50,384 bases of DNA, taken from positions 1 to 50,384 of the IMG/VR virus record IMGVR_UViG_3300030117_004591. One strand, 5' to 3'. Below the pieces are notes generated by a model. It saw only the letters and a program-made list of their open reading frames with translations. It was not told the DNA's origin and ran no database searches. Both the position numbers and the translations under genes were made by a program. Positions 1 through 50,384 of this stretch are shown piece by piece; positions within the stretch are counted from its first letter, which is position 1; every line of letters starts with the position of its first letter. The DNA is from a virus (Duplodnaviria > Caudoviricetes).

Positions 1-254
1 AAGTTTGTAATTCTATTAACTAAGCGCTCTATTTTATCTACAGCACCCATTTCTCTCTCAGCTATTTGTTTTATCTTAGTTTGTATAGGTTCTGTATAAT
101 ACTCTAAAATACCATAAGGATCATCCTCTCTAGGTAATTTGGTTTTTTTGTCTATAACAGCCTGAAGCCCGTCATTCTGATATTCTATTAATTGCGTAAT
201 TTTTTGCTGTATTAAAACAAGGTCGGTAAAGTTTTTACCACCTTCTTCAGATGC
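1..254. repeat. Imperfect terminal direct repeat, copy 1 (circular overlap with 50131-50384)
   Basis: Positions 1-56 and 178-254 are identical to the window end. There are 18 substitutions within 57-177 and no indels. Confidence 0.97.
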
Positions 255-3200
255 ACCTATAATTTTGTTTATCTTCTCATTCATTTCCCCTAATTTGTGA
301 ACAGGGTCATCTATACCTTTTATATCGTCACCATTTAGTTTTTTAGTTAAAAGTTCTATATCAGCAAAAACTTCTCTTAAATCAGACCTAAGGCCTGTAG
401 CTTGTCCTGAAACTTTATCAAGGGCAGTTTGTGCTTTATTAAGAACATCTACCATAGCTTCGTTTCCTAAAAGCTTAAATGCATCTACATATTTTTCTAT
501 ATTAACAACATCTTTAAATAACTCTGCTTTATCTGACAATATGATACTTCCAGTCTCAGCTGTGCTACCAAGAGTATTTTTTATAGTTTTCATAGCTCTA
601 AGTAAGTCAGCTTCTTCCTGAGCAGATACTCCGCTTTCTCCTCTTCTAAGCTTAAATTCTTTAACCAAAACTTCTGCTTCAGGAATTTGCAGTTTACCAT
701 CTCTCCATATAGCTAATTGATTTTCTATTAAATAAGATGCTAGTCCTACAGCCCTTCTATCTAACCCTTGAGTCTCTAACATTCTTTCTATAAATAGTTC
801 TTTTACTATAGACAGCTCTCCTAATTTAGTTTTAGGCATAGTTCTAGTTATAGTTTTAAAATATTCAGCTACCTGATTTATTTTATTAGCATCTATTTGT
901 ATTGTAGATGGCTCTGTTTCCCTTGTAGGTCCAGCTTCTTTTCCTAGATGTACAGACCTCATACTAAATATAGACCTTAAGAAAGCCATAGATTCATCAA
1001 CTTTATCATTCTTAGCTTGCTGATTAGGGTCTTTAGAATCTTTTTCATAGCCTATTATTTTATAATCAGCTATATCCCTAGCATATCTTCCATTCTTTAG
1101 TAAGAACAGCTCATCTAACATTTTAGTCATATTGCTATCCTGAACATCAGCTGAAGAACCTTCTACTATTTTAAACAACCTGTCATTAGCTTCTACATCT
1201 CTAGCATATTCTAAAAAGTGAAGAATGCTATTATCATTAGCTTCTAATACAATGTTTTTATTTCCGAATTTTTTAGACATTATATCCATATACTTTTCTA
1301 TAACTTTAAACGTCTGTAAGTCAAACTCGCTATCACTTAATTTGCTATCTTTTTTTAAGACATCTAAGTCTTTTTGTTGAGTTTTAGTTCTTACTGTAAG
1401 TATATTTAATCTATCTAATGCTCTAATAACGTCATTATATATTGTAGCTTGCCCTAAATCTTGACCTTCTCTACCTCTTACTTCATAAGCAGACATATTG
1501 CCTTGCTCATCAATAGCTACCTCAAAACCAAACCTATCTCTAAGTTCTGTTAGCATCGCTTTATATATATCAATTACATCTTTTTGACCTTCTTTAGTTA
1601 TTTTAGGGAGAGTGCCCGCAAAACCTAAGTCTTTAATAAGAACATCACGAGTAGTACCTTCTCCTTTTTCAACTACTATATTATCTACTTTATCTGCTAT
1701 TCTATTTAAAGCTTCTCTTGACATGTTTTCTACTTTTATAGGAACATAATCGGGTCCAACTTCAGCTCTTTTTTGAGCATTATATAAAGATAAGAATTTA
1801 GCAACTCTTTTATGGTCGCTATGTTTAAAGTCCCCAACTCCTACAGCTGTAATATTGGGATCGTTTAATACTGAATCAAATGCTCTGACTATTTCAGGAC
1901 CTACTCTTCCAGAAGATATATAGTCTCCCATAGCTATAGTAGGGTCTAAAATTTCAATTGCAGTGATTTGATTCTTAATTACTTCAGGTGAAGACCCCAT
2001 TGTTTTTAAAGCTCTCTTATAAGGCCCATATTCGGCTAAATAAGCACTATTGCTCTGTCCTCCAAACACCGTACCATCTTTACCCCAATGACCTCTATGT
2101 CTTGTCATTAAAAGACTCATAAACAAGTGAGAGCCTAACTCTTGATCACTTAAAGTTTTCCATAGTCCAGTATTAAACATTTCCCAATTCATAGCAGTTA
2201 CACCTATAGCCATTCTAGGTAAGGAGTAAGTTATATCTTCTAAAAGCCTTCTACCGTGAAAACTTCTAAGTTCGCTTTCAACCTTTTTTCTAATCTTATT
2301 ATTAAGAATAACAAGCTCTTCTTTAGTCATTTTTTCAATACCTAAAGCTTTGTTTCCTCTAACATTATTTATAAAATCGTCTACACCGTTTATAGTTCTT
2401 TTACCGACATTCCAAGTAGCATGTCCAATAGCACTATGATTCCATAAATCTAATTTAGCTCCTCTAGCCATAACAATAGCTAAGTTCCCTAAATCTGTCT
2501 GGTCCATAGTATTGTAGTCTGTTTTTTTAAATCTATTAAACATACTACCAACACCATTTTTCCACGAATCTCTACCACCACCAGGTATAGCTCTAATTAA
2601 AGGAAAAGCTAGAGCCATTACAAAAGAATGGTTTAAATCGTCCATAGGCTTCATTTCTTCACCATTAGCCCAAGTTTTAAATCTATTAGCTACAAGAGTG
2701 TGTGTAGTCATCATCAACATGTCTTGTGCTGCCATACCAGTATATCTAGCAAAATTCTTTCTAATGGCCCCTGGCATAGCTCCTCCAACACCTCTTTCTA
2801 CTAAATCTGCAAAATCATTTATAAATCTTTTTCCTCCCGTCAAATCTTTTACAATTTGCCTACTTGCATTTTGCGCTACATCCTCACCTATTTCAATACC
2901 AGCTTTTTTATATGCATTTGTTACTGCAGCTCTTGTTATTAATTCCAACTGGTCCGCAGCTTCTACTCCTTTTGCCCCAGCTATATTAATTTCTCTTATC
3001 CAAGAAGATCCAATATCGCCTTTAACCGTCTTATCAACTTCTTTTTTAATACTTGTATTTAACTTATCTTTAGCTCTAGCGATATTTTTAGAAGTAGCGC
3101 CACCCCACATTTTAGAGGCTCTTTCTGTTGCCAATCTAGTAAAAGCATCAGCTTCTTTTCCATCTAATTCGCCTGTAGTTCTAGCGATATTTTTAGCTGT

Positions 3201-3563
3201 ATATTTTCCAATTTTTGTATTGCCAGCTATTCTAGCAGCTTTTCCAAGACCTTTAGCCATAAGCCCAAAAGGCCCAAAAGGACTAAATAAAGATGCACCT
3301 TCACCTAAAACCCATCCAGTTTTTGCCCAAGCGCTCATTTCTTCCCAAGGAGTATCATGTGTAGCTAACTCAGAAGCTCCCCATGTTATTCCAGATGCGT
3401 ATCCCTCAAATCCGCTTTCAAAGAAATCCCATAATCCACCTTGATCGATTTCTTCTGGTGGGCTTACATCTGGATACCAATAAAGATTTTGACCCCCTGG
3501 TCCTGGCCCTTTAAAACCACGATCCTGGGTATCTTGTAATATTTTATCTCTCCAATCGCTCAT
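1..3563 (-). CDS. N-terminal part (~1,171 aa) of a giant virion protein / putative virion RNA polymerase; continues across the circular junction into 44409-50180
   Basis: ATG at 3563 (MSDWRDKILQDTQDRGFKGPGPGGQNLYWYP) with AAGGA upstream. The frame runs off the left edge, so it is absent from the ORF track. The in-frame ATG at position 50 is the same codon as 50180 (MGAVDKIERL). Confidence 0.92.
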   Translation of the reverse strand, partial: MSDWRDKILQDTQDRGFKGPGPGGQNLYWYPDVSPPEEIDQGGLWDFFESGFEGYASGITWGASELATHDTPWEEMSAWAKTGWVLGEGASLFSPFGPFGLMAKGLGKAARIAGNTKIGKYTAKNIARTTGELDGKEADAFTRLATERASKMWGGATSKNIARAKDKLNTSIKKEVDKTVKGDIGSSWIREINIAGAKGVEAADQLELITRAAVTNAYKKAGIEIGEDVAQNASRQIVKDLTGGKRFINDFADLVERGVGGAMPGAIRKNFARYTGMAAQDMLMMTTHTLVANRFKTWANGEEMKPMDDLNHSFVMALAFPLIRAIPGGGRDSWKNGVGSMFNRFKKTDYNTMDQTDLGNLAIVMARGAKLDLWNHSAIGHATWNVGKRTINGVDDFINNVRGNKALGIEKMTKEELVILNNKIRKKVESELRSFHGRRLLEDITYSLPRMAIGVTAMNWEMFNTGLWKTLSDQELGSHLFMSLLMTRHRGHWGKDGTVFGGQSNSAYLAEYGPYKRALKTMGSSPEVIKNQITAIEILDPTIAMGDYISSGRVGPEIVRAFDSVLNDPNITAVGVGDFKHSDHKRVAKFLSLYNAQKRAEVGPDYVPIKVENMSREALNRIADKVDNIVVEKGEGTTRDVLIKDLGFAGTLPKITKEGQKDVIDIYKAMLTELRDRFGFEVAIDEQGNMSAYEVRGREGQDLGQATIYNDVIRALDRLNILTVRTKTQQKDLDVLKKDSKLSDSEFDLQTFKVIEKYMDIMSKKFGNKNIVLEANDNSILHFLEYARDVEANDRLFKIVEGSSADVQDSNMTKMLDELFLLKNGRYARDIADYKIIGYEKDSKDPNQQAKNDKVDESMAFLRSIFSMRSVHLGKEAGPTRETEPSTIQIDANKINQVAEYFKTITRTMPKTKLGELSIVKELFIERMLETQGLDRRAVGLASYLIENQLAIWRDGKLQIPEAEVLVKEFKLRRGESGVSAQEEADLLRAMKTIKNTLGSTAETGSIILSDKAELFKDVVNIEKYVDAFKLLGNEAMVDVLNKAQTALDKVSGQATGLRSDLREVFADIELLTKKLNGDDIKGIDDPVHKLGEMNEKINKIIGASEEGGKNFTDLVLIQQKITQLIEYQNDGLQAVIDKKTKLPREDDPYGILEYYTEPIQTKIKQIAEREMGAVDKIERLVNRITN

Positions 3564-12336: not shown

Positions 12337-12699
12337 TTATTTTTCTTCCCATTTACTTAAGTCAAGCATCTGTAAAGGCCTTTCTATTACATGATCCTTA
12401 AGTTTATCATTTTGTATTTGTATTTTTGTTCCACCTTTAACATAAGGTTTCCCATTAGCCATTCCTATATCATAAGCAAAAAATGTTGTTTTCCACAAGC
12501 CCACTCTAATAACTCTAGCTGGCCTTTCGTCTAATATAACAACATCATCTGTATTTAAATCTTTGCCTAAAAATACTTTTAAGCCCTCTACTACAGTTTC
12601 TATAGTTGATTTAAATAATAATAGAGCAACTCCAGACACAAATAGCCAAACCCAGTTTCCTAAGATACCTTCTGCTTGATTCTGTATTTGTTCGTCCAT
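12337..12699 (-). CDS. Membrane protein resembling the TM + beta-domain of MscS-type mechanosensitive channels
   Basis: Hydrophobic helix WVWLFVSGVALLLF, then DDVVILD..ARVIRVGLWKTTF..KIQIQNDKL, which resembles the MscS middle domain. Confidence 0.55.
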   Translation of the reverse strand: MDEQIQNQAEGILGNWVWLFVSGVALLLFKSTIETVVEGLKVFLGKDLNTDDVVILDERPARVIRVGLWKTTFFAYDIGMANGKPYVKGGTKIQIQNDKLKDHVIERPLQMLDLSKWEEK

Positions 12700-12701
12700 A
12701 G

Positions 12702-13478
12702 TTACCCATTTATTGTTTTACCCCACAATGAGGCTTGCCCATTTATTATTTCAACTACTTCTACTGTAAAATTTCCACCTTTAAACCAATTTATTATAGC
12801 AAAAGCATGATTCCAGTTAGTTAGTCTTCCACCTAGCCAGTCTTCATCTGCTTTAATATCTTTTAAGCAGCCTAAGCTCCAAGAACTTATAGTCCCTCCA
12901 GCTTTAGTAGCAGTATGTCTTTGAAGATCGTGTGTATGTCCATACATTATGCTTTCACCGTAATGTTCTAAGTGTTTTTGAGAATGATACTTTGTAGTAT
13001 ATTTCCCATGAGTAAAGTTTAGTTTGCCTAACTTTAAACACTTCTTTCTATTATAAGGATGGAACTTATAACTTCTTTCTTTTAAGTTTAAGGCATTTTG
13101 AGTTTTATATTGAGTTAGATAAGGATGTCTTATAACAAATTTATCTAACCATACTTCATGATTACCTTGAACAAAATGTCTTTCTTTAGTACCAGCCTTA
13201 TCTAAAGCTTCATCAATCCAATCCATACCTGCATTAACTGATCTTATATCAAAATCCAATAAAGGCATTAAATCCTCCATTGGCTTTGCATTCCTACCTT
13301 TCCAGTAATGAGTGCTAAAATGCTCCCATTCGCCCGTATCTCCCAAATCTACATAAATGTCTGGCTTAACAATTTCTATCGCTTTACAAACAATATTAAT
13401 TGCTTTTTTATCATGCAGAGGAAAGTGCTTGTCGGGTGTAACAATTGCTGTTTTTCCCGCAATACCTTCTTTTGGCAT
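12702..13478 (-). CDS. Calcineurin-like metallophosphoesterase
   Basis: Motifs DKH, GD, GNHE, HG and GHTH in canonical order. Confidence 0.93.
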   Translation of the reverse strand: MPKEGIAGKTAIVTPDKHFPLHDKKAINIVCKAIEIVKPDIYVDLGDTGEWEHFSTHYWKGRNAKPMEDLMPLLDFDIRSVNAGMDWIDEALDKAGTKERHFVQGNHEVWLDKFVIRHPYLTQYKTQNALNLKERSYKFHPYNRKKCLKLGKLNFTHGKYTTKYHSQKHLEHYGESIMYGHTHDLQRHTATKAGGTISSWSLGCLKDIKADEDWLGGRLTNWNHAFAIINWFKGGNFTVEVVEIINGQASLWGKTING

Positions 13479-27639: not shown

Positions 27640-28392
27640 TCATCGAATCAGCCTGTCCTTGTCATTTGTTATTTCCTTAGGCCTTTCAGCCTCTTTTAAT
27701 TTTTCATTACTAAACCCTTGAAACATAGCTCCTGTTACTTGTGTAACCTGAGTTTTATTTTTATCTTCAAGATCCATTATATCGGATAGCTTGAACAATG
27801 CCTTTAAGCGGGTATCTTCTTTTTGTCCTGTTTCTGCTATTTGATGAATATTCCTAAGAATACTAGTTTCATTTATACCTAAAGCCTCTAAAACAGGTTT
27901 TAACTCTTCTTTCATAGCTGTCTTAATCCTTGTTGTTTTAACTAATTGTCCTGCACGTACGTTTGCATAGTGCGGGTCATTCGTAGGGAATGCCTTTAGA
28001 TACGCTGTACGTGCATCGATACCTGAAGCCAGGTACTGGACAAACAACTCCTCCCTACTAGATAAAGTCTTTCTAGACTCTATCCTCTCATCTCTATCTA
28101 CATTTCCTCCTATACTGTAGATATTAATTCTTTTAGATGTATCCATTCTATTCTTATCGGATACAACAAAGGTTCCAGTGCATGTGCCTAAGTATTCAAC
28201 TTTTCTAATCTTTCCCTTAGGCTTCATCATACTGCCTTTTCTCAGTATCTGTATTACACAATCATCGTCCGTCTTTACCCAATCACTTATATGACCATCC
28301 CTCCAGTCCTCTAGATAACTAATATCAGAAGGCACTTCCTCGACAGAATCAAATACAGTATGATTAATACCATTGACCTTGTAATGTCTCAT
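27640..28392 (-). CDS. Probable terminase small subunit with N-terminal extension
   Basis: HTH-like LSSREELFVQYLASGIDARTAYLKAF and C-terminal DTRLKALFKL helix typical of TerS; lies upstream of terL. Confidence 0.65.
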   Translation of the reverse strand: MRHYKVNGINHTVFDSVEEVPSDISYLEDWRDGHISDWVKTDDDCVIQILRKGSMMKPKGKIRKVEYLGTCTGTFVVSDKNRMDTSKRINIYSIGGNVDRDERIESRKTLSSREELFVQYLASGIDARTAYLKAFPTNDPHYANVRAGQLVKTTRIKTAMKEELKPVLEALGINETSILRNIHQIAETGQKEDTRLKALFKLSDIMDLEDKNKTQVTQVTGAMFQGFSNEKLKEAERPKEITNDKDRLIR

Positions 28393-28422
28393 CTTATACT
28401 CCGTACCCCGCTAGGGGTTCGG

Positions 28423-28611
28423 TTAACTTACTCCTATATCGTCACTATTAATGACATTTAAAAAATCTTGCATCTCACTTGGGATGTCTAACTCTTCATC
28501 ATCTACTATAAGTTTATATTCATCTTCATCTGAGAATTGCTCTGATAAATGAACTATTTCACCCTTAGTAGAGTCATAATATACTCTTAATACATATTTC
28601 TTTATTGCCAT
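28423..28611 (-). CDS. Small acidic hypothetical protein, first gene of the late block
   Basis: ATG with AGGAG RBS. Confidence 0.75.
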   Translation of the reverse strand: MAIKKYVLRVYYDSTKGEIVHLSEQFSDEDEYKLIVDDEELDIPSEMQDFLNVINSDDIGVS

Positions 28612-28838
28612 ATTATCACTCCTAGATAGACCTAGCCCTGAGGAGCTAGTAAAGATTTTAACTTCTGAACTTCATCTTAGACCAGTAATTTCTCCCATAT
28701 CCTAGATTTATATCAGAGTCAGTTTTATCGGTTATTGGGGACAATCTAAATCTCTATATGAGTTAGCAACCCAACTTCTGATCCATTACACCCTTGCTAA
28801 GGTCACATGGATGATATTCTTAAGAATACCGATAAGCT

Positions 28839-28868
28839 AATATAATAGATAAAATATCAAAATACCAA
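28839..28868 (-). promoter_or_regulatory. Sigma70-like leftward promoter candidate (TTGGTA-18-TATATT)
   Basis: Located about 230 nt upstream of the first minus-strand gene. It has the same CTTG...TTATATT pattern as 34904-34933. Confidence 0.45.
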
Positions 28869-28921
28869 GAGGTTTTAAAAATTATGTAATTTTAGTGTGT
28901 GGTGTTATATAGTAGTAGTAC

Positions 28922-28958
28922 CCCTTTAAAAGGGATTATCAGTAACGTAATTACGTTA
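28922..28958. promoter_or_regulatory. Two adjacent palindromes at the strand-divergence point
   Basis: CCCTTT-A-AAAGGG (28922-28934) and a perfect 16-bp palindrome TAACGTAATTACGTTA (28943-28958). Confidence 0.6.
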
Positions 28959-29018
28959 TTTTTCATTTGTATTAAATATTGATTTAGTATTTTTAAATTA
29001 ATATAGGAGTAACATATT

Positions 29019-29282
29019 ATGCTATTATTTTCACTTGATCAGTTGACCAGTGAGCAACAAGCCATTGACATAGCGGATAGACTTGTCGATGAGGCAATAG
29101 AGGCTAGTACAGCTCAACGTAACAAGCGTAGAAAGATAAGGGCTGTCGAAGCTAAGATAAAGCGTGTACAAAAGAAATGTCTTGTAATGCAATGGTCTAA
29201 GCCTATCGAAAAGCTTAAGAGATCGTTTGAAATGCTTGAAGAAATGCGTGGTGAGCTTGATGTGCAAATGTGGGGAATATAG
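29019..29282 (+). CDS. Hypothetical protein, first early gene
   Basis: AGGAG RBS; 87 aa, helical. Confidence 0.8.
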   Translation: MLLFSLDQLTSEQQAIDIADRLVDEAIEASTAQRNKRRKIRAVEAKIKRVQKKCLVMQWSKPIEKLKRSFEMLEEMRGELDVQMWGI

Positions 29283-29294
29283 ATTATTCATAGC

Positions 29295-29331
29295 GTGTGT
29301 GTGAGTTTAGTCGACTTGCACACACCTCCTT
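29295..29331 (+). terminator. Hairpin after the first early gene
   Basis: 12-bp stem GTGTGTGTGAGT/ACTTGCACACAC followed by CTCCTTGT. Confidence 0.5.
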
Positions 29332-29453
29332 GTATGTATACTTGTGCCGTAATAAACCACGAAAGGTGTAGTGTAATAACAACCTACGATATGTGTATGT
29401 GTGTAAGATAATATATACCAACTTATACCAAACTATAAGATTTAGTAATACAA

Positions 29454-29666
29454 AGAGTCGCAAGAGTAACTCGACTAATTAAAAAAAGTTACTGATGTGA
29501 GTACTTACAGGTCAACTTGTACCTGTCAGGAAAATGTCTAAGATAATATGCGGATAACATAGCGGTTCAATACTGTGTAACAAGTTTATAAGAGATTGAT
29601 AGTCATGTGAAGATCATATATTGCTGAGGTAATCAATGCCAAACTTTATGTGTGACACATGACTCT
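29454..29666 (+). ncRNA. Putative structured RNA with pseudoknot
   Basis: Pairings AGAGTCG/TGACTCT, AGTAACT/AGTTACT and ACAGGT/ACCTGT. The loop AACTTGT is complementary to ACAAGTT (29580). No ORF. Confidence 0.6.
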
Positions 29667-29700
29667 CTTAAAATTAACCTAAACCATAAAAGGAGAAATA

Positions 29701-29946
29701 ATGTACGAAGAGCTAACCGAATGCCCTGATTGTAAAGAGCTGGCAACAATAACCAATTCAAGTTTTAATGCATCTATAAATTGTGGATGTGGAGTAGTAG
29801 AGATAGAGACTATGATAGAGGAAGACAGGTTATATCCTGTGTATCAGCAAGTCTTTGGATCATTTATTATGACTAAGTATGAAGATAGTCGTATTAAACA
29901 TTCTGGCAGACTCAAAAGCCTAAAACATAGGAGGACCAACAAATGA
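29701..29946 (+). CDS. Zn-ribbon-like hypothetical protein
   Basis: CPDC...CGC; AAAGGAG RBS. Confidence 0.8.
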   Translation: MYEELTECPDCKELATITNSSFNASINCGCGVVEIETMIEEDRLYPVYQQVFGSFIMTKYEDSRIKHSGRLKSLKHRRTNK

Positions 29947-30401
29947 TATATGAAATACTATTTTCAGTAGCTGGTGTTCTTATAATATTATTATTTATTA
30001 TGACTGATAAGTATCGAACCCAATTGAATCGTGCAAACAAGTGGAAGTCAGATTATTTCGCAATTAAATCAGTATTAGATGATGAGCGTAATAAAGTAGA
30101 TCTAGTAGCTAGACTGGCTGGTGTAAACTTGAAAGAAGCTGAAAAAGAGGCTAGAAAGAAAGGCTTGTGGAAAGAGCCTGAGCCTTGGATAGGACATCAC
30201 CCAATGGATGTAAATGAAGAGTGGTGGAAATACGAAACACGTAAAAGATCAGATGATAGTAAACCTAAAAAAAAATCTTTTAAAGATATTGATATAGCTA
30301 AGATAGCAGCTGAGATTAAAGCTAAAAAGAAAGGTTTATGGCCAGAGCCTGAGTCTTGGAAAGACAGAAACACTGGTGCCTTAAAGAAAAAACTTAAATA
30401 A
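29943..30401 (+). CDS. Membrane-anchored protein with an internal repeat
   Basis: N-terminal TM helix; ARKKGLWKEPEPW and AKKKGLWPEPESW. Confidence 0.8.
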   Translation: MIYEILFSVAGVLIILLFIMTDKYRTQLNRANKWKSDYFAIKSVLDDERNKVDLVARLAGVNLKEAEKEARKKGLWKEPEPWIGHHPMDVNEEWWKYETRKRSDDSKPKKKSFKDIDIAKIAAEIKAKKKGLWPEPESWKDRNTGALKKKLK

Positions 30402-30432
30402 CAACGTTGTTGTTTTAGATAACAATAAAAGA

Positions 30433-30467
30433 CCACCTTATATTATATAGCTAGTAATGTAAGGTGG
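30433..30467 (+). other. Stem-loop
   Basis: 13-bp stem CCACCTTATATTA/TAATGTAAGGTGG; no U-tract. Confidence 0.6.
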
Positions 30468-30493
30468 CACAGTAAATGATGAATGAATGATGT

Positions 30494-30948
30494 AAAGGAC
30501 ACGATGAATTAGTTATCTCGTGGATAAATAAAACTAACTAAAATTAAGATGTTAATATACAAGCTCCGATGTGCGACGGTACATCTCGGTTATGTGTATT
30601 TTAATTGGTAATGATGTGAACGGCTTGTTTCCAAAGGCCTACATCAGCATACTTTCGGTGTTGACTGACATGTCTATTAAATGATAGAGGTGTAAGAGCG
30701 TAACTAACTTAAGTATGGCGAGTGTTGAAACTAAATAACTAAAGAGATTTGGTTACGGTATAAACTATACTATGCTTGTTGTGAGCAGTATAGATACAAT
30801 ATGGATATAGTGTCCTTTGTTGATGCATAAGTGATGCAAAGCTTATGTAAGGCAAGTTACGACAGTAATTATTGTATGTATCGTGAGGCGAAAGCCCATA
30901 ACAACTAGACATTCTGAAGGTATCTCAAGTCCTTCACCAAGCATCTTA
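30494..30948 (+). ncRNA. Large, multi-helix putative non-coding RNA (~400-450 nt)
   Basis: ORF-free, with more than ten complementary segment pairs. These include nested long-range stems and a GGC-GAAA-GCC tetraloop (see findings). Confidence 0.75.
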
Positions 30949-30977
30949 TTATTAAATAATTTAAAAAGGAGAAATGT

Positions 30978-31136
30978 ATGAAAGCAGTAAAGTTTAGACA
31001 ATTAGTGTCAAAAATAGTTATTGAAGGCAATGCACCTGATAGTATTGCAAAAGAAATATTAGAATGGGCGAAAGAAAGCAAGCCTATAGTTAATCATAAG
31101 CAGAGCTGGTCTACTTCTTATAAAGGAGGCAAGTAA
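30978..31136 (+). CDS. Small hypothetical protein (52 aa)
   Basis: AAAAGGAG RBS; MKAVKFRQLVSKIV...; TAATG overlap with the next gene. Confidence 0.8.
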   Translation: MKAVKFRQLVSKIVIEGNAPDSIAKEILEWAKESKPIVNHKQSWSTSYKGGK

Positions 31137-31369
31137 TGAGTGATGTATATAAAATATCTCAAGCATTAGAGGATATGAAGAATTATTATGGGTTAAAAGA
31201 GATAAAAAATGTGACACTCAATATGAATGATGTTGAAGATGTCCACATTACATTTGTATCTAATAAACCTACTAATAACCTATTTAATGATATGGAAGGG
31301 CTGCCAGATAAGTTGACATATGTGTTGAAACTATCTATAAATGTGGGCAGTATATTTCCAAAGGAATAG
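31136..31369 (+). CDS. Hypothetical protein (77 aa)
   Basis: AAGGAGG RBS. Confidence 0.8.
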   Translation: MSDVYKISQALEDMKNYYGLKEIKNVTLNMNDVEDVHITFVSNKPTNNLFNDMEGLPDKLTYVLKLSINVGSIFPKE

Positions 31370-31375
31370 TCAAAT

Positions 31376-31903
31376 TGGGAGAAGTTTGGCTGTTTTGGGT
31401 TATTCCATACCCTTTTCCTTTTCAGCCTTGGTTGGCTTCTCCCATATTATTAGGGGAATAGCTACTCACCTAGCGAGGTTCTTTTCTGTCTTTCATACGC
31501 TTAAGAGCAACCTACTCACACTCGATATTCCCCTATTCCATTCAATGGTGAAGTCTACCAGGTAGTTCAGACAAAAGACTGGCGGCAGGAAGGAAAAAAT
31601 TAAAGCTGAGGCGGTAGTAGTGCACACCTAGATATAGTATATACGAAATCTATATCAACAAGGGAGCTATCGTTACATGTCTCTGCCTGTGAACATAAGT
31701 AGCAGGTAGAGAAAATTTAAACTTATGACCAACGCAAGGCACCGTATCGTAAAGGCGGAATAATGTCAGGTGGTAGGGTCTATGTGCTGAGTGTAACTAG
31801 ATGATTACTGAGTGACTCGAAATAACAGATGCTTACACTATCACGGCACGGGGACGACACGAAGATCACTCATCGAGTCCACGAGATAACTGTGGTTCGT
31901 CCC
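31376..31903 (+). ncRNA. Tandem cluster of structured RNA domains
   Basis: Successive closed stems at 31376-31444, 31451-31535, 31610-31674, 31680-31727, 31784-31849 and 31851-31903. G-U pairs are consistent with the plus strand. Confidence 0.7.
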
Positions 31904-31938
31904 AAAGAATTTTATTAATTAAAATAGGAGACTACGAT

Positions 31939-32265
31939 ATGTCAGTATTAGATAATGAAGTTAAAGCAAAAATAGTAGAAACTACCTCAATTGAAGCAAA
32001 TATAACTATCAAAAAGTTATTAGATATGATTTGCAAGCATTGGGAAAAGTGTATGGATAATTATTATGTGATGGAATCAGAGCCTGAACTATCAACCGAT
32101 GATTACAGTGACAGTATTACAGTAAATCTTAATACTTCAGACAGAGTTGATTTAAATCATGTAGTAGATGACGTTAGAATGTTATTTGAAGAAGAACTTG
32201 AAGAATACATTAAGAAACAAGAAGCATTGCAGTCTGTCGAAGAAGGTGAAAGTGGCAGCCTATAA
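31939..32265 (+). CDS. Acidic hypothetical protein (108 aa)
   Basis: AGGAG RBS. Confidence 0.8.
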   Translation: MSVLDNEVKAKIVETTSIEANITIKKLLDMICKHWEKCMDNYYVMESEPELSTDDYSDSITVNLNTSDRVDLNHVVDDVRMLFEEELEEYIKKQEALQSVEEGESGSL

Positions 32266-39341: not shown

Positions 39342-39344
39342 AAT

Positions 39345-39745
39345 TATAGGTGTCTACGAGCGTAAAACATAATCCCAAGGGTATCCAAGCGTGCATGTAC
39401 GGAGTGAATCCAATGGGCGGTGTGAATAATTAATAGAGTCCGCAGGTGATGCATCAGTCATTTAATTGGCAGCCAATAAAGTAACATAACGGTAACTGTT
39501 ACACGTTAATTATTCAACCTGACGAGGTTATAGAGACATAAGAGAGGGAAACTAATAGCTGTGCTCAGCTCTCACCTATATTGAATTGCTGTCCCATGGC
39601 GATAGTATTTGAAGACTAGGCTACAATGTATAAATCCGATGTCGGCTCATTGCGAGAGACTAGGAGGGCAGCAATAGAATTGTGGAGGCCTGAAGAATTT
39701 TTCGTTGAAAATGACGACAAGATATGCTAACTTTAGGCCTCTGCA
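39345..39745 (+). ncRNA. Three tandem structured RNA domains
   Basis: Closing stems TATAGGTG/CACCTATA (39345-39580), ATTGCTGTCC/GGGCAGCAAT (39585-39675) and a 15-bp TGTGGAGGCCTGAAG/CTTTAGGCCTCTGCA (39681-39745). Confidence 0.7.
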
Positions 39746-39763
39746 TTAACTTTGGAGGGATTA

Positions 39764-39886
39764 ATGAGTAAAGTCGAAAAAAATAGACTTAAAAAGCAAA
39801 TTCTAAGGCTAATTAAGAAAAAAAGAAATAGAGAAGCTGGGCTATTAATTCAAAGGTACAAAAGTAAGTACGGAGAACTAAGCTAA
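39764..39886 (+). CDS. Small basic protein (40 aa)
   Basis: GGAGG RBS; TAATG overlap with the next gene. Confidence 0.7.
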   Translation: MSKVEKNRLKKQILRLIKKKRNREAGLLIQRYKSKYGELS

Positions 39887-44408: not shown

Positions 44409-47400
44409 TTAACATTTTCTACCAACTTCTCTTTGGTCTAATATATTCTCTACAACTTTTTTATTCTTATACTCTCTCCAGTCACGATAATTGTTTCTTT
44501 CAGTCTTACCAGTGCTAGGATCTATTGTATCTATTTTAACGTCTTTATTAACAATAATTTCTTTATTAAGAATATTCGTCAAATAAGGATGAGCGTAAAA
44601 AGTACCAGTCCATCTAGCTAAAAATTTCCAAGTACCTGCCATATCTCCCAATCTGTCAAAATTATAATTGTCAGTTTTATAGGCATCACGCTCAATTGGA
44701 CCTTTCATTTCTCTACCAGATGCAACAGATTCCCAATCTCTCATTGTTTTTTCAACCCAACTTCCCCTATTATTAGATTCTGCATAGTCAAAAACTGTTT
44801 TAATTAAATGATCGTCCATCTTATAAGAAGGCATTTCATAACCTTTTTGAATCTGAATTCTTGTAGGCGATATCTGTGGCTGTATTAAATAATTTAATAA
44901 GAAATCTACAGGTTCCCCTGGAATATTTTGTGTTACTTCAGGAGCCCATTTATCTAAAAACAATCTAATTTTTTCATACTCTATAGTTCTATCAATAAGA
45001 AAAGTTTCATCCAATAAAGTTCTTTGGTCAAACGCTCTATCTAATGTTTTTCTATAACCTCTAGATATAGAGTTTCTTAAATCTAAAGCATTTTGAACAA
45101 ACTGCTCTACTAAACTTTCGTCTTTAATAAATGCATTAGGTGATTTTTTATGACCACCATAAGTTACTTCAAATAAAGCATTAGCATATCTTAATTCTAC
45201 TGAGCTTGAGCTTGCTCTGCTTGTAGGGTTTGTATCGACTATATAAGTATAATTAGCATCATACCTTATTCTGTCTCCATATTTATAATATCCGACAAAT
45301 TCTAGCTGACTATTATCAACTCTAGCCCTTGTACCTTTCCAGTCTAAAACATGGTCGTATAAATTTCTAGGTTTTTGCGGAATACTGCCGTCAGCTTTTG
45401 CTAAAGGATCAGGCCTTACATCGCCTTTTACTTTAAAAACTGCAACTCTGTTTTTAGAATTTGGATTAGACCTTTTAAATGTTTGGTTTCCTAGATTTTT
45501 AGGCTTCCATATATTTTCTTTATTATTAGTCATGCCGCTTTTCTTTACAGATAAATCTTTAGCTATTTGAACATCTAATATATCCATTGCTTTTTGTAGA
45601 TTAATAGCTCTGTCTTGCAATTTTTGTATTTTATATGGGTCCATAAAGCCTTTATTAGCACTTCTAAAGCTAGAAATAGTTTGAAGTATACCCATATACT
45701 GTTTTTCTACAACATCCCTTAATATGCCTTTATGAATAGCTGATGAAAGCTCACCTTTTCTACCTACATGAGGGTTACCAAAAGACTCTATGTTAATATC
45801 ATCTAGTCTAGTAATATCTATTAGCCTACCTTCATCATTAAACATTCTAGCTTCTGCAACAAAAGACTCTATGTTTCTAACAAAATAACCTAAAGCATTA
45901 TTTATTTTTCGAGTAGGGTTTTTTATACCTTCAAAATTCTTTTCGTGAAAAGCGGGAGTTTTTACTAGTCCATCAAATATTTTACCAGAAATAGAAAAGT
46001 CAAAACCTGATGTCCCTGATACAATGTTGTCCCAATTAAAATCTCTATTTATAAATTTATCTCTTTTCCCATTTACAATATCTTTATATAGTTGATTTCT
46101 AGTGTCAGGCTTATTGTATGCTGCATAATTTTCTCCATAAAACATATCAACGTATTGTGTCACTAATTCATCTACGCCTGCTTTTTGAGCATCTGTTCCA
46201 TATTTTTTATAAAAAGATATGCGAGATTTAATGGCATCTGCTATATAAGCACTAGGGTCTGCAAAAAGTCTTTCCATTCTCGAATGGTCTTTTTTAAGCT
46301 CCCAAGGTTCAGGCTTTCTTGGTCCTACTTCATCGTAGGTACCCCCAAATACTTTATTAGGAGATCTTAAAGCTCTAAATATTGCATATACAATTTCTCT
46401 TTCAATAGCTCTAGTTCCTTTAAACTCGCTCATTCCAGATAAAATTGTTTTTTCATTACTAGTAACACCTTCTTGACCTAAATGCCTCATTAGATTAGCG
46501 TCACCTCTGCCTTCTCTTTGAGCTCTAAAATATTCTGCTCTCATACTAGATTCCATAATATCAAAAAGCAAAAAGTCTTTTAATTGTTGTGTTTTCTGAA
46601 ATACATCATGTATACCATCGTGTATATCTACTGAATTTTGGAACATATCATACATTTTATCTAAGAATGCCCAACTATCATTGTTTTTATTAGCTATATT
46701 TGAAAATTTCTTAAATAACTGCTCTCCTCTATAGCTAAGCTGCATTTCACTTGCCCAAGATAAAGCTGACCTTAGCCCTATAACTTGACCTATAATCATT
46801 TTTGAAGAATGAATTCTATTAGCATATTGATGGAATCCAGCCTGATGTGATTTTGCTGAAGAACCAGCTCTCATAACTTCTCTACCGTCAACAGTTTCTC
46901 TGTTTAATCCAAAAATATTGATAGACTCTAAGTTTAAATTGTTACTAGCATCCCACATTCTAAAGTCATCTTTCTTTCCAGCTTCTCTTAGAAATTGCCT
47001 CATAATGCTTCTTGGGTATCTAGTGTGAAAATAAAAATGGTCACCGTCATTATCTCTTTGAAGGACAGTTCTTAAATCATGATTATTTATTTCAGTTAAC
47101 CCGTTCATATTGTCAAGTATTCTTTCAATTTTAAGAATTACTTTATCGTGACCTATTGCTGGTATAGCGTTACCCATACCTGCTACCCATACTTTTTTCA
47201 AAATTCCATCTTTTACAGTGCTTGCTTTTAGACCAACTAAATTGTTAAGGCCTTTAGGATCTCTACTAGAAACTTTTTTACCTTGCATTAAATTGATAAC
47301 ATCATGCAGTGTGAGCTGATGATTTACAACTAAATTGTCCAATTCTTTAAGAGCAAGCTCTACTTTCATAAGTTCTTTTGCTGAAATTGCAAGATCTTTT

Positions 47401-50384
47401 TCTGTATACTGAACTTCCTTACCATTCTTATCTACACCTTTAATGTAAAGTTTATTTTTATTAGTGCCTAGCAGAGGGTCTGCATTAGAGGTTCTTAAAG
47501 CATCTATAGAAGGCACTTCTGCATAAAACTTACCATCGCTTCTATTAAACCCTATTATCACCTCAACTCCGCTATTTGCTTGATAGATAAAAGTTTCACC
47601 AGTAAGAGAGCTACTACCTCCTCTTCCCATACCTCTTTTTGCCGTATTAGCACCTATAGCAATACCTCCAAACTGAAGAGCAGTTCTATTTACTCTAGTA
47701 GGATTATCAGGGTCTCCACTTTTAATACCTCTAGGACCGTGTATTTCAGCATAAACAGGGACAGATAAATCTGATTTTACGTTAGGAGTAATAAAAAGGT
47801 CTTCTCCACCATTTATGTTTTTATTAGTCTTTAAATCATCATATTGTTTATTTCTCAAAGTTCTTCTAAGAGCTGTTTGTATAATAGGATTTTCAGGACT
47901 TGCCCCATAGGTAAATAACAACTTCATTCTGCCACTATCGCCAGTCTCCATTCGATTTCCCTTAGCTTCATTTATATCTAATAAAAATTTAGCCGTCAAA
48001 CCTCCATCTGTATGAAGCGTACCCCATTCAGCAGCTACATGAGTTAACTTTTCGTTTAATTTCATCCATTCAGCTGCACGGTTAACTGTTGTGCTACTTT
48101 GAAAATCAAAAACACTATGAGATATAGCGACACCTTTTTGATTGCTCGATGTAAAAGATACTCCTATACTTTCTATATCTAAATCAATCATGTTAGATTT
48201 TTCAGACTTTCCTGGAGCTTTTTTATTGGAAGATTTTCTTAAATCAACAGTCCAATCAGTTTTGTTTTTTATCTCTAGCGGGCTAACCTTATTAACCCCA
48301 TCGACACTAATGCCGTCAAATGTTTTAGCAGATTCTGTGCTAATAACCATATCAACATCTTTAGGCATATTTTTAGCAACCTCTGGATGATATATCATGA
48401 AGCCTTTACCAAGCATTTGATCGCCACCAGTTCCAAATATAATAGTTTTAGCGCCATTAGGATCTTCTAAAAAACTTCCAGTATGCACTTTGCCTTTAGA
48501 AGCCATAATTAACCTCATCATTCTTTCTGATACAAACTTAGCACCATCAAGCAAAGAGTTTTCAAGGCTTCTCAATTCATTATTATTTATAGAAAGCTCA
48601 TTTACCCTAACTATTCTTCTAAGCAAATCTCCTTTATTTTTTTCTAAACCTAGCTTTTCCAATACTAAGTTTTTTATACCTAGTGGGCCTGTTGTTTCAT
48701 TTTTACCACCTATTACTAAACTTCTAAACTTTCCACCCTTAGATTTACTTAATATAGATTTAGCCGCTTCTCTAACCTTAGGGTCTGGATGATCTCTTCT
48801 AGCCCATCTTATAACTTCTTTATTTAAAGGCTGAGTAGTTCCTCCATCTGAAAGAAAGCCTCTCTTAAACATATTGTTTTGAATTTTAGCAAGAATTTTT
48901 TCCCTACCTCTGCCAGCCATTTCTCCTATAAACTTATCAAATTCGCTTCGTTTTCCAGTATTAGTTAAATATGGAGCCATTAATTTTATGTTAACTATAT
49001 CTCTAACATTAGTAGTTTTTCCAATTAAATGACCAAATGCAGTTTCAAATGTAGTTGCTAGTCTAGATTTATTTTTAACATCTAAATCTTGGTATCTTTT
49101 TAATGTTCTATTATACCAAGCTGTAAACTCATTGTTTAATTTTGCAATATTGCCTTCTGTTGCTACAAATAAAATCTTATTTCTAGGAGAAAGGCGAACA
49201 TAAAAGAAGTGATTAGACAAAGCTCCGTCTGCACCAATATTTATAGAGTCTACCATTTCTTTAACAGCTTCCATTGTAAGTGATGGATCTTGTTCTTTTA
49301 AAGCTTTAAACAGGTCTTCTTTACTACCTCTTCTTATAGCGTCATTAATCCATCTTTGAATTTGATTAGGGTCTTGCACAGTGTCGATACTAACATTTCT
49401 AAGCTTATCTCCACCAGCATCTATACTCATAACATCATCTATAAAATGAACAGCAAATCCTTTCTTTTTAAAATAAGAAGTTCCAGGGCTATTTATATTA
49501 GAGACATTGCCTGTAAAATCCATTACAGACCTTTGCTCTCCTCCTGGAGCCACACCTTTAAATCTTACAGTGTTAATAGGAGCAGCATTTGCAATTGTAT
49601 TCATAAGTTCCATAGAATGAGTTAGCCTAAAATCCTCCCATTTTGATTTAAATTCAGAAGTATTTAACTTGCCATCAACTGTAGCATTTTCCTTAATTTT
49701 AGCCCTTATTATAGCCATTGCAGCAAAAGGACTTTTTGACAGTTCTGACCTAAAATGAGGATCTATTGCTCCTGTTGCATCTATAAGGTCATAATCTTTC
49801 AATATTTCTTGAATACTTTTATGATGCTCTTCTGTCTGATTAAGCTTATCCATAGCTTTCATCATTTCAACAGCTTCTCTATGAAAAGGATGTTTTTCAT
49901 TTCCTATAATAATTTCTTTGTCAATCTGCCTATCTATTGCTTCAACAACTTTTAAAGCATCTGATACAAGTCCATTGTTACCTAATTCTAAAATAATTTC
50001 AGATAAAACTTTTTGACCACCCTTGCTGTCTAATCCTTTAACTGAATTTGACAAATCTTTTGATAGGTTTTCAATAAGAATTTGAACTTGCGCTGGAGAA
50101 AGGCCTAGATTTTTTTGACCTTGAAATGTTAAGTTTGTAATTCTATTAACTAAGCGCTCTATTTTATCTACAGCACCCATTTCTCTTTCAGCTATTTGCT
50201 TTATCTTAGTCTGTATAGGTTCTGTATAATACTCTAAAATACCAAACGGATCATCTTCTCTAGGTGTATTAGTTTTTTTATCTATTACAGCTTCAAGTCC
50301 TTTATTGTGATATTCTATTAATTGCGTAATTTTTTGCTGTATTAAAACAAGGTCGGTAAAGTTTTTACCACCTTCTTCAGATGC
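44409..50384 (-). CDS. C-terminal part of the giant virion protein, containing putative two-barrel RNA polymerase catalytic motifs
   Basis: LLDGAKFVS (~48545), MLGKGFM (~48405) and QRDNDGDHF (DNDGD at 47040-47054). The frame stays open to the right edge. Confidence 0.85.
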   Translation of the reverse strand, partial: ASEEGGKNFTDLVLIQQKITQLIEYHNKGLEAVIDKKTNTPREDDPFGILEYYTEPIQTKIKQIAEREMGAVDKIERLVNRITNLTFQGQKNLGLSPAQVQILIENLSKDLSNSVKGLDSKGGQKVLSEIILELGNNGLVSDALKVVEAIDRQIDKEIIIGNEKHPFHREAVEMMKAMDKLNQTEEHHKSIQEILKDYDLIDATGAIDPHFRSELSKSPFAAMAIIRAKIKENATVDGKLNTSEFKSKWEDFRLTHSMELMNTIANAAPINTVRFKGVAPGGEQRSVMDFTGNVSNINSPGTSYFKKKGFAVHFIDDVMSIDAGGDKLRNVSIDTVQDPNQIQRWINDAIRRGSKEDLFKALKEQDPSLTMEAVKEMVDSINIGADGALSNHFFYVRLSPRNKILFVATEGNIAKLNNEFTAWYNRTLKRYQDLDVKNKSRLATTFETAFGHLIGKTTNVRDIVNIKLMAPYLTNTGKRSEFDKFIGEMAGRGREKILAKIQNNMFKRGFLSDGGTTQPLNKEVIRWARRDHPDPKVREAAKSILSKSKGGKFRSLVIGGKNETTGPLGIKNLVLEKLGLEKNKGDLLRRIVRVNELSINNNELRSLENSLLDGAKFVSERMMRLIMASKGKVHTGSFLEDPNGAKTIIFGTGGDQMLGKGFMIYHPEVAKNMPKDVDMVISTESAKTFDGISVDGVNKVSPLEIKNKTDWTVDLRKSSNKKAPGKSEKSNMIDLDIESIGVSFTSSNQKGVAISHSVFDFQSSTTVNRAAEWMKLNEKLTHVAAEWGTLHTDGGLTAKFLLDINEAKGNRMETGDSGRMKLLFTYGASPENPIIQTALRRTLRNKQYDDLKTNKNINGGEDLFITPNVKSDLSVPVYAEIHGPRGIKSGDPDNPTRVNRTALQFGGIAIGANTAKRGMGRGGSSSLTGETFIYQANSGVEVIIGFNRSDGKFYAEVPSIDALRTSNADPLLGTNKNKLYIKGVDKNGKEVQYTEKDLAISAKELMKVELALKELDNLVVNHQLTLHDVINLMQGKKVSSRDPKGLNNLVGLKASTVKDGILKKVWVAGMGNAIPAIGHDKVILKIERILDNMNGLTEINNHDLRTVLQRDNDGDHFYFHTRYPRSIMRQFLREAGKKDDFRMWDASNNLNLESINIFGLNRETVDGREVMRAGSSAKSHQAGFHQYANRIHSSKMIIGQVIGLRSALSWASEMQLSYRGEQLFKKFSNIANKNNDSWAFLDKMYDMFQNSVDIHDGIHDVFQKTQQLKDFLLFDIMESSMRAEYFRAQREGRGDANLMRHLGQEGVTSNEKTILSGMSEFKGTRAIEREIVYAIFRALRSPNKVFGGTYDEVGPRKPEPWELKKDHSRMERLFADPSAYIADAIKSRISFYKKYGTDAQKAGVDELVTQYVDMFYGENYAAYNKPDTRNQLYKDIVNGKRDKFINRDFNWDNIVSGTSGFDFSISGKIFDGLVKTPAFHEKNFEGIKNPTRKINNALGYFVRNIESFVAEARMFNDEGRLIDITRLDDINIESFGNPHVGRKGELSSAIHKGILRDVVEKQYMGILQTISSFRSANKGFMDPYKIQKLQDRAINLQKAMDILDVQIAKDLSVKKSGMTNNKENIWKPKNLGNQTFKRSNPNSKNRVAVFKVKGDVRPDPLAKADGSIPQKPRNLYDHVLDWKGTRARVDNSQLEFVGYYKYGDRIRYDANYTYIVDTNPTSRASSSSVELRYANALFEVTYGGHKKSPNAFIKDESLVEQFVQNALDLRNSISRGYRKTLDRAFDQRTLLDETFLIDRTIEYEKIRLFLDKWAPEVTQNIPGEPVDFLLNYLIQPQISPTRIQIQKGYEMPSYKMDDHLIKTVFDYAESNNRGSWVEKTMRDWESVASGREMKGPIERDAYKTDNYNFDRLGDMAGTWKFLARWTGTFYAHPYLTNILNKEIIVNKDVKIDTIDPSTGKTERNNYRDWREYKNKKVVENILDQREVGRKC
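50131..50384. repeat. Imperfect terminal direct repeat, copy 2
   Basis: Matches positions 1-254 with 18 substitutions. Confidence 0.97.

Follow-up and report, generated by a model that had tools for sequence, protein, structure and literature searches.

Locus and extent of the RNA

The stretch of DNA analyzed here, referred to below as the window, is a viral contig of 50,384 nucleotides (nt; IMG/VR record IMGVR_UViG_3300030117_004591) with an estimated completeness of 95%. Its early region carries a 404-nt sequence, at 30545-30948 on the + strand, that is almost certainly a genuine conserved structured RNA. The window is identified as a tailed phage by its large terminase, portal, Erf and SSB genes (PHROGs); a small terminase (Pfam) and a DnaB-type primase-helicase are also encoded. 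A − strand block of structural and packaging genes meets a + strand block of early and replication genes near 28.4-29.0 kb, and the RNA lies 1.5 kb inside the + strand block, in a 576-nt gap (30402-30977) that separates + strand open reading frames (ORFs) at 29943-30401 and 30978-31136. The gap and the ORF that follows it comprise:

30402-30544, + strand: non-conserved spacer from the upstream stop codon to the RNA, with no counterpart in relatives
30545-30948, + strand: the whole conserved structured RNA, 404 nt; conservation in the 27-sequence alignment A2 starts at helix P1 and stops after the 3′ strand of P1
30978-31136, + strand: first downstream ORF, 52 amino acids (aa), with its own AAAGGAG ribosome-binding site; it starts 30 nt after the RNA

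Folding of the whole gap gave a z score of −4.40 on the + strand, where none of 100 shuffled sequences folded as well, and −1.25 on the − strand. For the RNA itself, the + strand gave a z score of −4.61 (0 of 100 shuffles as good) versus −0.46 for the − strand (34 of 100). A first-pass annotation of the sequence had described a large, ornate RNA of 400-450 nt beginning at 30494. The size and complexity are borne out by the 404-nt length, about 20 helices, a pseudoknot, preferential + strand folding and strong covariation. The start, however, moves to 30545, because the segment at 30494 that had been proposed as a pairing partner falls beyond the conserved sequence. The idea that the RNA encloses a conserved ORF was considered and dropped; the longest stop-free stretches, measured with flanking sequence, are 39-84 codons and are not shared between relatives. 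The upstream spacer contains a strong local 14-bp hairpin (~30432-30466) without a T run. No terminator-like site was found within 28300-32000 of the window, and promoter-like sites in the same interval are no commoner than the shuffled rate.

Relatives in viral and marine metagenome contigs

The gap has no blastn match among 50,697 phage records, and none at word size 7 among 80 related loci that were gathered via the primase-helicase. DNA searches of five related whole phage records returned chance fragments only, and an exact 18-mer scan of viral contigs returned nothing. The genes flanking the RNA in the window have almost no relatives, and the upstream 152-aa protein gave 73 pattern matches in viral contigs, none of which was confirmed. 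A single-sequence nhmmer search of the 80 loci yielded one partial copy, at a contig end (locus L022), and a pattern drawn from its conserved block yielded two full copies. A relaxed version of the pattern found 13 stretches in viral contigs, 12 of them confirmed; a pattern of the same type found 33 in mostly marine metagenome contigs, with 25 confirmed and 8 attributed to chance. A second, independent pattern added four members, eight of its 12 new loci being chance matches, and the pattern matches L087 and L100 were also discarded as chance. A covariance model of the 3′ domain only (R1) then recovered three far more divergent copies, termed D-type, among the helicase-linked phages, and all 13 stretches found with a D-type pattern were confirmed by R1.

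In total, the RNA is present in 29 viral contigs, including the window, and in 25 metagenome contigs. The search of marine viral and metagenome contigs for homologues, which the first-pass annotation had recommended, thus produced 40 distinct full-length sequences, which fall into four subtypes and range from ~370 to 440 nt. Every contig that carries it is either viral or a marine metagenome contig in which phage genes are present; the carriers are phages of 50-57 kb, with no related cultured phage. Among 185,579 prokaryote genomes there were three matches, in G+C-rich metagenome-assembled genomes, none confirmed by nhmmer or R1, and this search pointed to neither a host nor a prophage. Because members were found with patterns or models derived from the family, TCGTGAGG, CCCAT and AGGTA, the first two of which the patterns required, are invariant in subtypes A-C partly by construction; the D-type sequences, which were found by a model, have diverged versions, and the blocks can therefore vary.

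Conserved secondary structure and covariation

The fold was derived with RNAalifold from alignment A2, with one pseudoknot added, and consists of 110 pairs in 20 helices. It was compared with controls in which the 3′ partners were slid by 1-3 columns and with 500 shuffles. Standard pairs are formed in 93.4% of cells, versus 38.5-48.8% in the slid controls. The compensatory changes on which the first-pass annotation had staked its call are present: 74 of the 110 pairs are changed on both sides, versus 16-26 in the slid controls, and the covariation score is 0.478 versus at most 0.127. None of the 500 shuffles reached any of five measures. The true paired fraction is slightly higher than 93.4%, since the five A-type rows, the window among them, are shifted by one column at helix 4; its pairing was read directly from the sequence and is present in the centroid fold. 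Three further elements misaligned by MAFFT (the 30736-30755 hairpin, the P1/P1a/P2 region and an insertion in P3 of subtype B) were checked sequence by sequence. The MAFFT alignment that includes the D-type (A4) is partly out of register and was excluded from the pair counts. Folded separately, the D-type shows the same architecture and a covarying pseudoknot.

The evidence for the structure is unusually strong, and the architecture shown by this comparison is one in which stacked helices P1 and P2 join the ends of the molecule, a 5′ domain follows, a long-range helix closes a 3′ core that contains a four-way junction, and a pseudoknot is formed. Its parts in the window, all on the + strand, are:

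30545-30551: 5′ strand of P1, TAAGATG, pairing with CATCTTA 30942-30948 and closing the molecule
30554-30599: P1a, the long hairpin that follows P1 and precedes P2, with the tip GATGTGC-GACG-GTACATC (GACG loop at 30575-30578)
30605-30609: 5′ strand of P2, TTGGT, pairing with ACCAA 30936-30940
30613-30645: P3, a hairpin of GATGT/ACATC plus an inner stem resembling GGCTT/AAGCC; its internal loop, GTGAA(A/C)G, is conserved
30648-30717: 5′ domain (helices 4-8), closed by CATACTT 30648-30654 and AAGTATG 30711-30717
30720-30725: 5′ strand of the long-range helix, GAGTGT, pairing with ACATTC 30909-30914 and closing the whole 3′ half
30736-30755: hairpin TAACTAAA-GAGA-TTTGGTTA between the long-range helix and the 3′ core, with an alternative register 30729-30736/30747-30754
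30756-30883: 3′ core (helices 11-18, 92-100% paired), closed by CGGTAT 30756-30761 and GTATCG 30878-30883
30765-30793: hairpin CTATACT/AGTATAG of the 3′ core, whose loop carries a pseudoknot strand
30778-30782: 5′ strand of the pseudoknot, GTTGT, in the loop of that hairpin, pairing with ACAAC 30901-30905
30794-30877: four-way junction, closed by ATACAATA 30794-30801 and TATTGTAT 30870-30877, with three hairpins (30803-30815, 30817-30855 and 30856-30869)
30884-30898: hairpin TGAGGC-GAAA-GCCCA with a bulged A (helix 19), within the TCGTGAGG...CCCAT block that is invariant in A2
30916-30935: terminal hairpin GAAGG-TATCTCAAGT-CCTTC, consensus loop GGUAAUNNNAAAUCC (helix 20), followed directly by the 3′ strands of P2 and P1

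The pseudoknot (helix 14) is paired in 100% of cells, with two-sided, compensatory changes at all five of its pairs; its variants include GTCTC/GAGAC, GTTCA/TGAAC, TTCCC/GGGAA, ACTCT/AGAGT and ATCTC/GAGAT, with UCUC/GAGA or CUUC/GAAG in the D-type. In contigs of two other marine studies, a T-to-C change at 30782 occurs jointly with an A-to-G change at 30901, so that both sides of one pseudoknot pair are altered, and other substitutions convert pairs to G-U wobbles or wobbles back to pairs. One of these contigs has 8 changed letters among 357 in the RNA, versus 32 among 241 in the adjacent coding stretch. The long-range helix (helix 9) is paired in 95.7% of cells and has two-sided changes at four of six pairs.

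The helices that join the ends of the molecule vary just as freely. P1 differs in sequence in nearly each lineage, and its variants are complementary (TTGGAGGGT/ACCCTCCAA, TATGTATGG/CCATACAT, AATAATTGG/CCAATTATT, TAAGGTG/CACCTTA and TGCGG/CCGCA, with TTGTGTG/CACACAA in the D-type). In P2, two-sided changes occur at all three counted pairs, the variants being TGGT/ACCA, TGAT/ATCA, TCAC/GTGA, TGGG/CCCA, TAGG/CCTA and CTAG/CTAG. P1, P1a and P2 were jointly formed on co-folding in 16 of the 27 sequences (subtypes A and C); subtype B lacks P1a and carries an insertion in P3 instead. The P1a loop is GACG in most sequences; it differs in L089 and is replaced by a self-complementary UGAUCA/UGAUCG loop in L113 (UGAUCA), L138 and the D-type. 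No receptor for the GACG loop was found by eye. The self-complementary loop at the tip of P1a, present in three subfamilies, would suit a kissing contact if the RNA assembles into a multimer.

P3 (helices 2 and 3) has two-sided changes at nine of 12 pairs. The hairpins of the 5′ domain carry a conserved AAAUG loop (30668-30693) and a conserved GUAACU loop (30694-30710); a switch involving the AAAUG loop together with the long-range helix was considered and dropped, as it is not conserved. An equivalent of the 30736-30755 hairpin is found in all 27 sequences; it is truncated in the window, and most relatives add an apical stem, usually capped by GAAA. Its lower stem covaries (ACAUAAAA/UUUUAUGU, ACAAUGA/UCAUUGU and AACAAAUA/UAUUUGUU). 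The junction hairpin at 30856-30869 has an invariant GACA loop, and it is on this 3′ core domain that R1, which recovers the divergent relatives, was built.

The comparison also sorts the 13 pairings listed in the first-pass annotation, whose complementary segments are all located where it placed them. Nine are supported by covariation: P1 (TAAGATG/CATCTTA), P2 (TTGGT/ACCAA) and P3 (GATGT/ACATC); the hairpin AATATACA.../...TGTGTATT with the GATGTGC-GACG-GTACATC tip, which is P1a; CTATACT/AGTATAG, GCATAAGT/GCTTATGT, GGC-GAAA-GCC and GAAGG/CCTTC; and TTGTTGTG/CATAACAA, a crossing pair that corresponds to the pseudoknot. The other four are not conserved. They are AAAGGACAC/GTGTCCTTT, whose 5′ partner is the segment at 30494 outside the RNA, ATGTCTA/TAGACAT, CAGCAT/GTGTTG and CGTAACTAA/TTGGTTACG; the bases of all four take part instead in different helices that covary.

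Inverted repeats could also mimic an RNA fold in an element that acts as DNA, such as a replication origin, a packaging site or a recombination hotspot. In favor of this, the region is mosaic, with exchanged flanking genes. Against this stands the strand asymmetry of folding (z of −4.61 versus −0.46). G-U pairs are widespread on the + strand, and exchanges of G-U for A-U or G-C keep pairing only in the + strand RNA; an invariant G-U at columns 344/502, for example, would give C-A on the other strand. Moreover, the long-range helices and the pseudoknot span 120-400 nt. A DNA-level element is therefore highly improbable.

Neighboring genes

Across loci, the RNA is on the strand of the surrounding small early genes. 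It is a + strand, RNA-level element between protein genes of the same strand, and its neighbors vary between phages. In every locus with sufficient flank it is located 1-1.5 kb from a − strand gene of ~244 aa that is divergent to the early operon and that, in the window, matches a small-terminase family. The first downstream ORFs form 14 non-homologous groups across 18 loci; four of the 18 loci have no ORF of at least 45 aa in the ~200 nt downstream. The 52-aa ORF of the window has no Pfam or PHROGs family. Its relatives, identified with jackhmmer among neighboring ORFs, start +30 to +54 nt from the RNA in the window, L111, L125 and L118, and are farther off in L090/L116/L112, L132, L107, L093 and L089/L106. 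A small protein of this type is thus found near the RNA in ~9 lineages, not in all, at a varying distance and on either side. One phage contig of 54,531 nt has two copies of the RNA, L090:513-945 (−) and L022:1-191 (+), with different genes following each. The copies are ~95% identical, as estimated by eye, over their common 3′ 190 nt; the second is truncated where the contig stops, which may reflect a break in the assembly at the repeat.

A position in the early operon is what a transcription-modifying element would have, for example a processive antiterminator similar to the phage put RNAs or the EAR element that promotes read-through of the operon. The RNA has a fixed early-operon position on the coding strand, it would be co-transcribed with the downstream genes, and there is no terminator nearby. 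No downstream terminators that it would need to overcome were found, however; there are two copies in one genome, and nothing specific supports this role. The known antiterminator elements are also smaller than this RNA by a factor of several. We regard an antiterminator as quite improbable.

Transfer RNA (tRNA) genes are recurrent neighbors. A same-strand tRNA-Met is located 3-204 nt upstream of the RNA in L111, L095/L131/L104 and L143. In the group L092/L094/L096/L129, a further same-strand tRNA-Met, at L096:4347-4419 (−), lies 97 nt upstream of the RNA; it scores 40.6 bits with the Rfam tRNA model and is missed by ARAGORN. Several further lineages have a tRNA-Met within 2 kb of the RNA. The stretch L111:60-139, directly upstream of the tRNA-Met and the RNA, scores 65.5 bits with the Rfam tmRNA model (cut-off 47), above its tRNA score, and is probably an unusual tRNA-like gene, though not called by ARAGORN.

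The transcript must be processed for the adjacent tRNA to mature, which leads to the possibility that the RNA is a ribozyme, processing itself, cutting the early polycistronic transcript, or acting on the tRNA or another RNA. Its size, closed compact architecture, pseudoknot and invariant unpaired or bulged blocks (TCGTGAGG...CCCAT, GACA, GUAACU and AAAUG) are consistent with catalysis. In addition, in L089 the end of a gene for a PNKP-type phosphatase domain (12504-13205, +; Pfam HAD_PNKP, E value 1e-35), associated with RNA end-healing, abuts the start of the RNA. By eye only, the gene after the RNA in L095 opens with a similar DLDGT motif. While these features suit a ribozyme, the phosphatase neighbor is confirmed at the single locus L089, no Rfam ribozyme family matches the RNA, and its flanks are separate ORFs with no intron. 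A ribozyme is improbable on this evidence.

Comparison with known RNA families

The first-pass annotation did not recognize the RNA as a member of any family, and the database searches agree. Rfam 15 gave no match at gathering scores in the whole window and none at an E value of 10 or less in 30300-31100. The family matches no Rfam 15 model; its fold and sequence are new, and its general kind is known. No description of this RNA was found in the literature searched, which did not extend to the supplements of PMC10690425 and PMC2864571. A survey of structured RNAs in IMG/VR by Fremin et al. in 2023 lists 8495 unnamed candidates, which include tRNA-like ones and others located upstream of genes (PMC10690425). 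It mined the same viral contig collection, and the portions of the report covered here describe no large RNA of this kind (PMC10690425); a partial prior prediction of a fragment of the RNA among its candidates is possible.

The first-pass annotation had also seen no tmRNA, RNase P or intron core that it recognized. There is no Rfam match to any of these in the window, and ARAGORN calls neither a tRNA nor a tmRNA. A tmRNA or tRNA-like 3′ end was rejected on further grounds: the hairpin loop is 10-12 nt rather than 7, and the ACCA after CCTTC is the 3′ strand of P2, covarying with its partner. Among relatives it reads ACCA, AUCA, GUGA, CCCA, CCUA or CUAG, and because of this variation it is not a CCA end. 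Motifs resembling RNase P or mimicking ribosomal RNA were dropped, having no Rfam support. For group I and group II introns there is neither an Rfam match nor an interrupted gene; the flanking ORFs have their own stop codon and their own ribosome-binding site and start, and so the RNA is not an intron in a gene.

The only Rfam signal comes from manA (RF01745), a motif known from marine cyanophages and metagenomes and regarded as an orphan riboswitch candidate. Among the loci of 24 relatives, the manA model scores 18.3 bits in L111 and 18.4 bits in L097 and L114, whose RNAs are near-identical. The match spans the 3′ half of the RNA from end to end, with an E value of 0.015 when only the L111 RNA is searched. 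The gathering cut-off of 55.2 bits is reached neither in the window, which has no manA match at an E value of 10 or less, nor in the relatives, so the strong match to a known family that would have removed the novelty is absent. At an E value of 10 or less, manA matches none of five whole phage records versus four of 14 unrelated control genomes. The genuine manA of phage P-SSM2 scores 181.6 bits with the Rfam model. In the reciprocal test, R1 with filters off gave a 3.3-bit local match to this manA, confined to the terminal hairpin, and nhmmer gave none.

Nevertheless, a possibly shared topology is suggested by the cmscan alignment, in which the elements follow in the same order: a hairpin, a four-way junction with three hairpins, another hairpin, a terminal 5-bp hairpin and a closing 3′ strand, whose 5′ partner lies upstream in both RNAs and completes a long-range or pseudoknot helix. 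The loop of the terminal hairpin is of the GGUA...AAUCC type in both, and the loop of the small junction hairpin is also similar. Both RNAs occur in marine phages just upstream of ORFs of varied function. On the other hand, the enclosing helices differ and one manA hairpin has no counterpart. The manA model has 192 positions, compared with about 400 nt here, and the new RNA has P1/P1a, a ~110-nt 5′ domain, a long-range helix and a different pseudoknot beyond it. The carriers also differ, being T4-like cyanophages for manA and 50-57 kb phages without a cultured relative for the new RNA. A distant relationship to manA is possible, perhaps one chance in three. Because the window has no match, control genomes do match and the reverse search fails, the RNA is not filed under manA. 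If the likeness is real, the RNA would provide a second, larger form of this orphan motif for comparison.

The likeness bears on the main rival explanation, that the RNA is a cis-acting 5′ leader, an enlarged relative of manA that senses a metabolite or factor, or stabilizes the message, and so controls the downstream early gene or genes. As noted above, the manA model aligns with the 3′ half of three RNAs with the elements in a similar order. In marine phages, manA RNAs are described as preceding genes of varied function (PMC2864571), and that of P-SSM2 ends 15 nt before an ORF. Among 18 loci of the new RNA, 11 have an ORF whose start is no more than about 50 nt away. Set against this are the low manA scores, their restriction to three of 24 loci, the matches in control genomes but not in phage records, and the failed reverse search. 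Moreover, the downstream genes are mutually unrelated, and pairing between the RNA and a ribosome-binding site is not apparent in the sequences examined. A length of 400 nt is about twice that of large riboswitch aptamers. Taken together, these data leave a leader a doubtful explanation.

In genomic habit, the RNA resembles GOLLD and ROOL. Published descriptions place both, in phages, "often near tRNA islands", and one marine GOLLD "downstream of Met-tRNA" (PMC12286853). ROOL is a large pseudoknotted RNA of phages and prophages, located near tRNA islands and with no known protein partner (PMC12286853). The new RNA resembles GOLLD in being large, ornate and phage-encoded, in its proximity to tRNA genes and in having domain ends set by covariation. 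It is about half the size of GOLLD, for which cage assembly has been shown. Like ROOL it is large, pseudoknotted and phage-encoded, but the fold is a different one. The hosts of ROOL are rumen and Gram-positive lineages, unlike those of the new RNA. The GOLLD and ROOL models have no match at an E value of 10 or less in the window region, and none at E values of 1 to 10 or less in the loci of the 24 relatives. The habit of being phage-encoded and near tRNA genes is shared by four lineages with an upstream tRNA-Met; the window has no tRNA.

Proposed role

The explanation we favor is that the RNA is a stand-alone, trans-acting early phage RNA in the manner of GOLLD and ROOL, to which we assign a probability of roughly one half. 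Under this model, the RNA would be made early in infection within a polycistronic early transcript and would fold as a self-contained unit that is released, or at least functions independently, like the adjacent tRNA and possibly together with it. It would then work in trans, binding a host or phage partner or assembling with itself, as the genomic habit of GOLLD and ROOL suggests. Evidence in support comes from its independence of its neighbors, with 14 groups of downstream ORFs across 18 loci and different genes after the two copies in one contig, from the tRNA-Met neighborhood, and from its constant place within the early operon.

Several observations weigh against this model. A discrete transcript and its ends are predictions. 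The RNA is not bracketed by a promoter and a terminator, and its release would therefore depend on a hypothetical processing step. Of the 18 loci for which a downstream ORF is recorded, 11 have its start within ~50 nt of P1, and in the window the 30 nt that separate the RNA from the 52-aa ORF are also compatible with a leader. The only database resemblance, a weak one, is to manA, which Rfam lists as cis-regulatory. ARAGORN finds no tRNA in the window. Finally, every member of the family was found with patterns or models derived from the family itself.

GOLLD and ROOL are highly expressed in lytic growth and form homo-oligomeric cages. A more novel, tentative reading is that the new RNA represents a new class of large, protein-independent phage RNA, either a multimer or cage similar to those of GOLLD and ROOL or a new ribozyme acting on the tRNA or the early transcript. 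If so, an abundant, uncultured lineage of marine phages would use it within minutes of the start of infection. To our knowledge, comparably large and complex RNAs of bacteria and phages are few: ribosomal RNA, RNase P, tmRNA, introns, OLE, GOLLD, ROOL, HEARO and raiA. Each class of large RNA has taught something new, most recently with the RNA-only cages of GOLLD and ROOL. The well-determined secondary structure and 40 natural variants in four subtypes make the RNA ready for structure determination and biochemistry, and 370-440 nt may be a manageable size for current cryo-electron microscopy of RNA. The RNA also marks a conserved early function in a lineage of marine phages without cultured members and with almost no annotated early genes.

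Other stretches of the phage genomes

ORFs of 1187 and 1991 aa (3-3563 and 44409-50384, both − strand) run off opposite ends of the window and would fit a single giant gene split at the cut point of the contig.

Just downstream of the second RNA copy, on the same contig as L090, is an 860-nt, G+C-richer stretch (L022:390-1250) in which the largest gap free of ORFs of at least 50 aa is 614-1135. Many loci of related phages contain pieces of it, and in ten of them a 36-38-nt segment (~653-690) is 97-100% identical; it has no Rfam match at an E value of 1 or less. A second ORF-free gap in the early operon of the window (31566-31938, 373 nt) is a possible site of a further conserved noncoding element. 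Its segment 31846-31911 shares 84% identity with L022 590-656, and L007, L008, L093 and L067 contain other parts of it. After the DUF932 gene, a 544-nt ORF-free gap (39342-39885) has segments that the closest relatives (L002, L003, L004, L006 and L008) share at 79-99% identity. Where the small-terminase side and the early operon diverge, the intergenic region (28612-29018) shows ~70% identity over some 350 nt in many related phages, a pattern of conservation that fits shared promoters or an origin.

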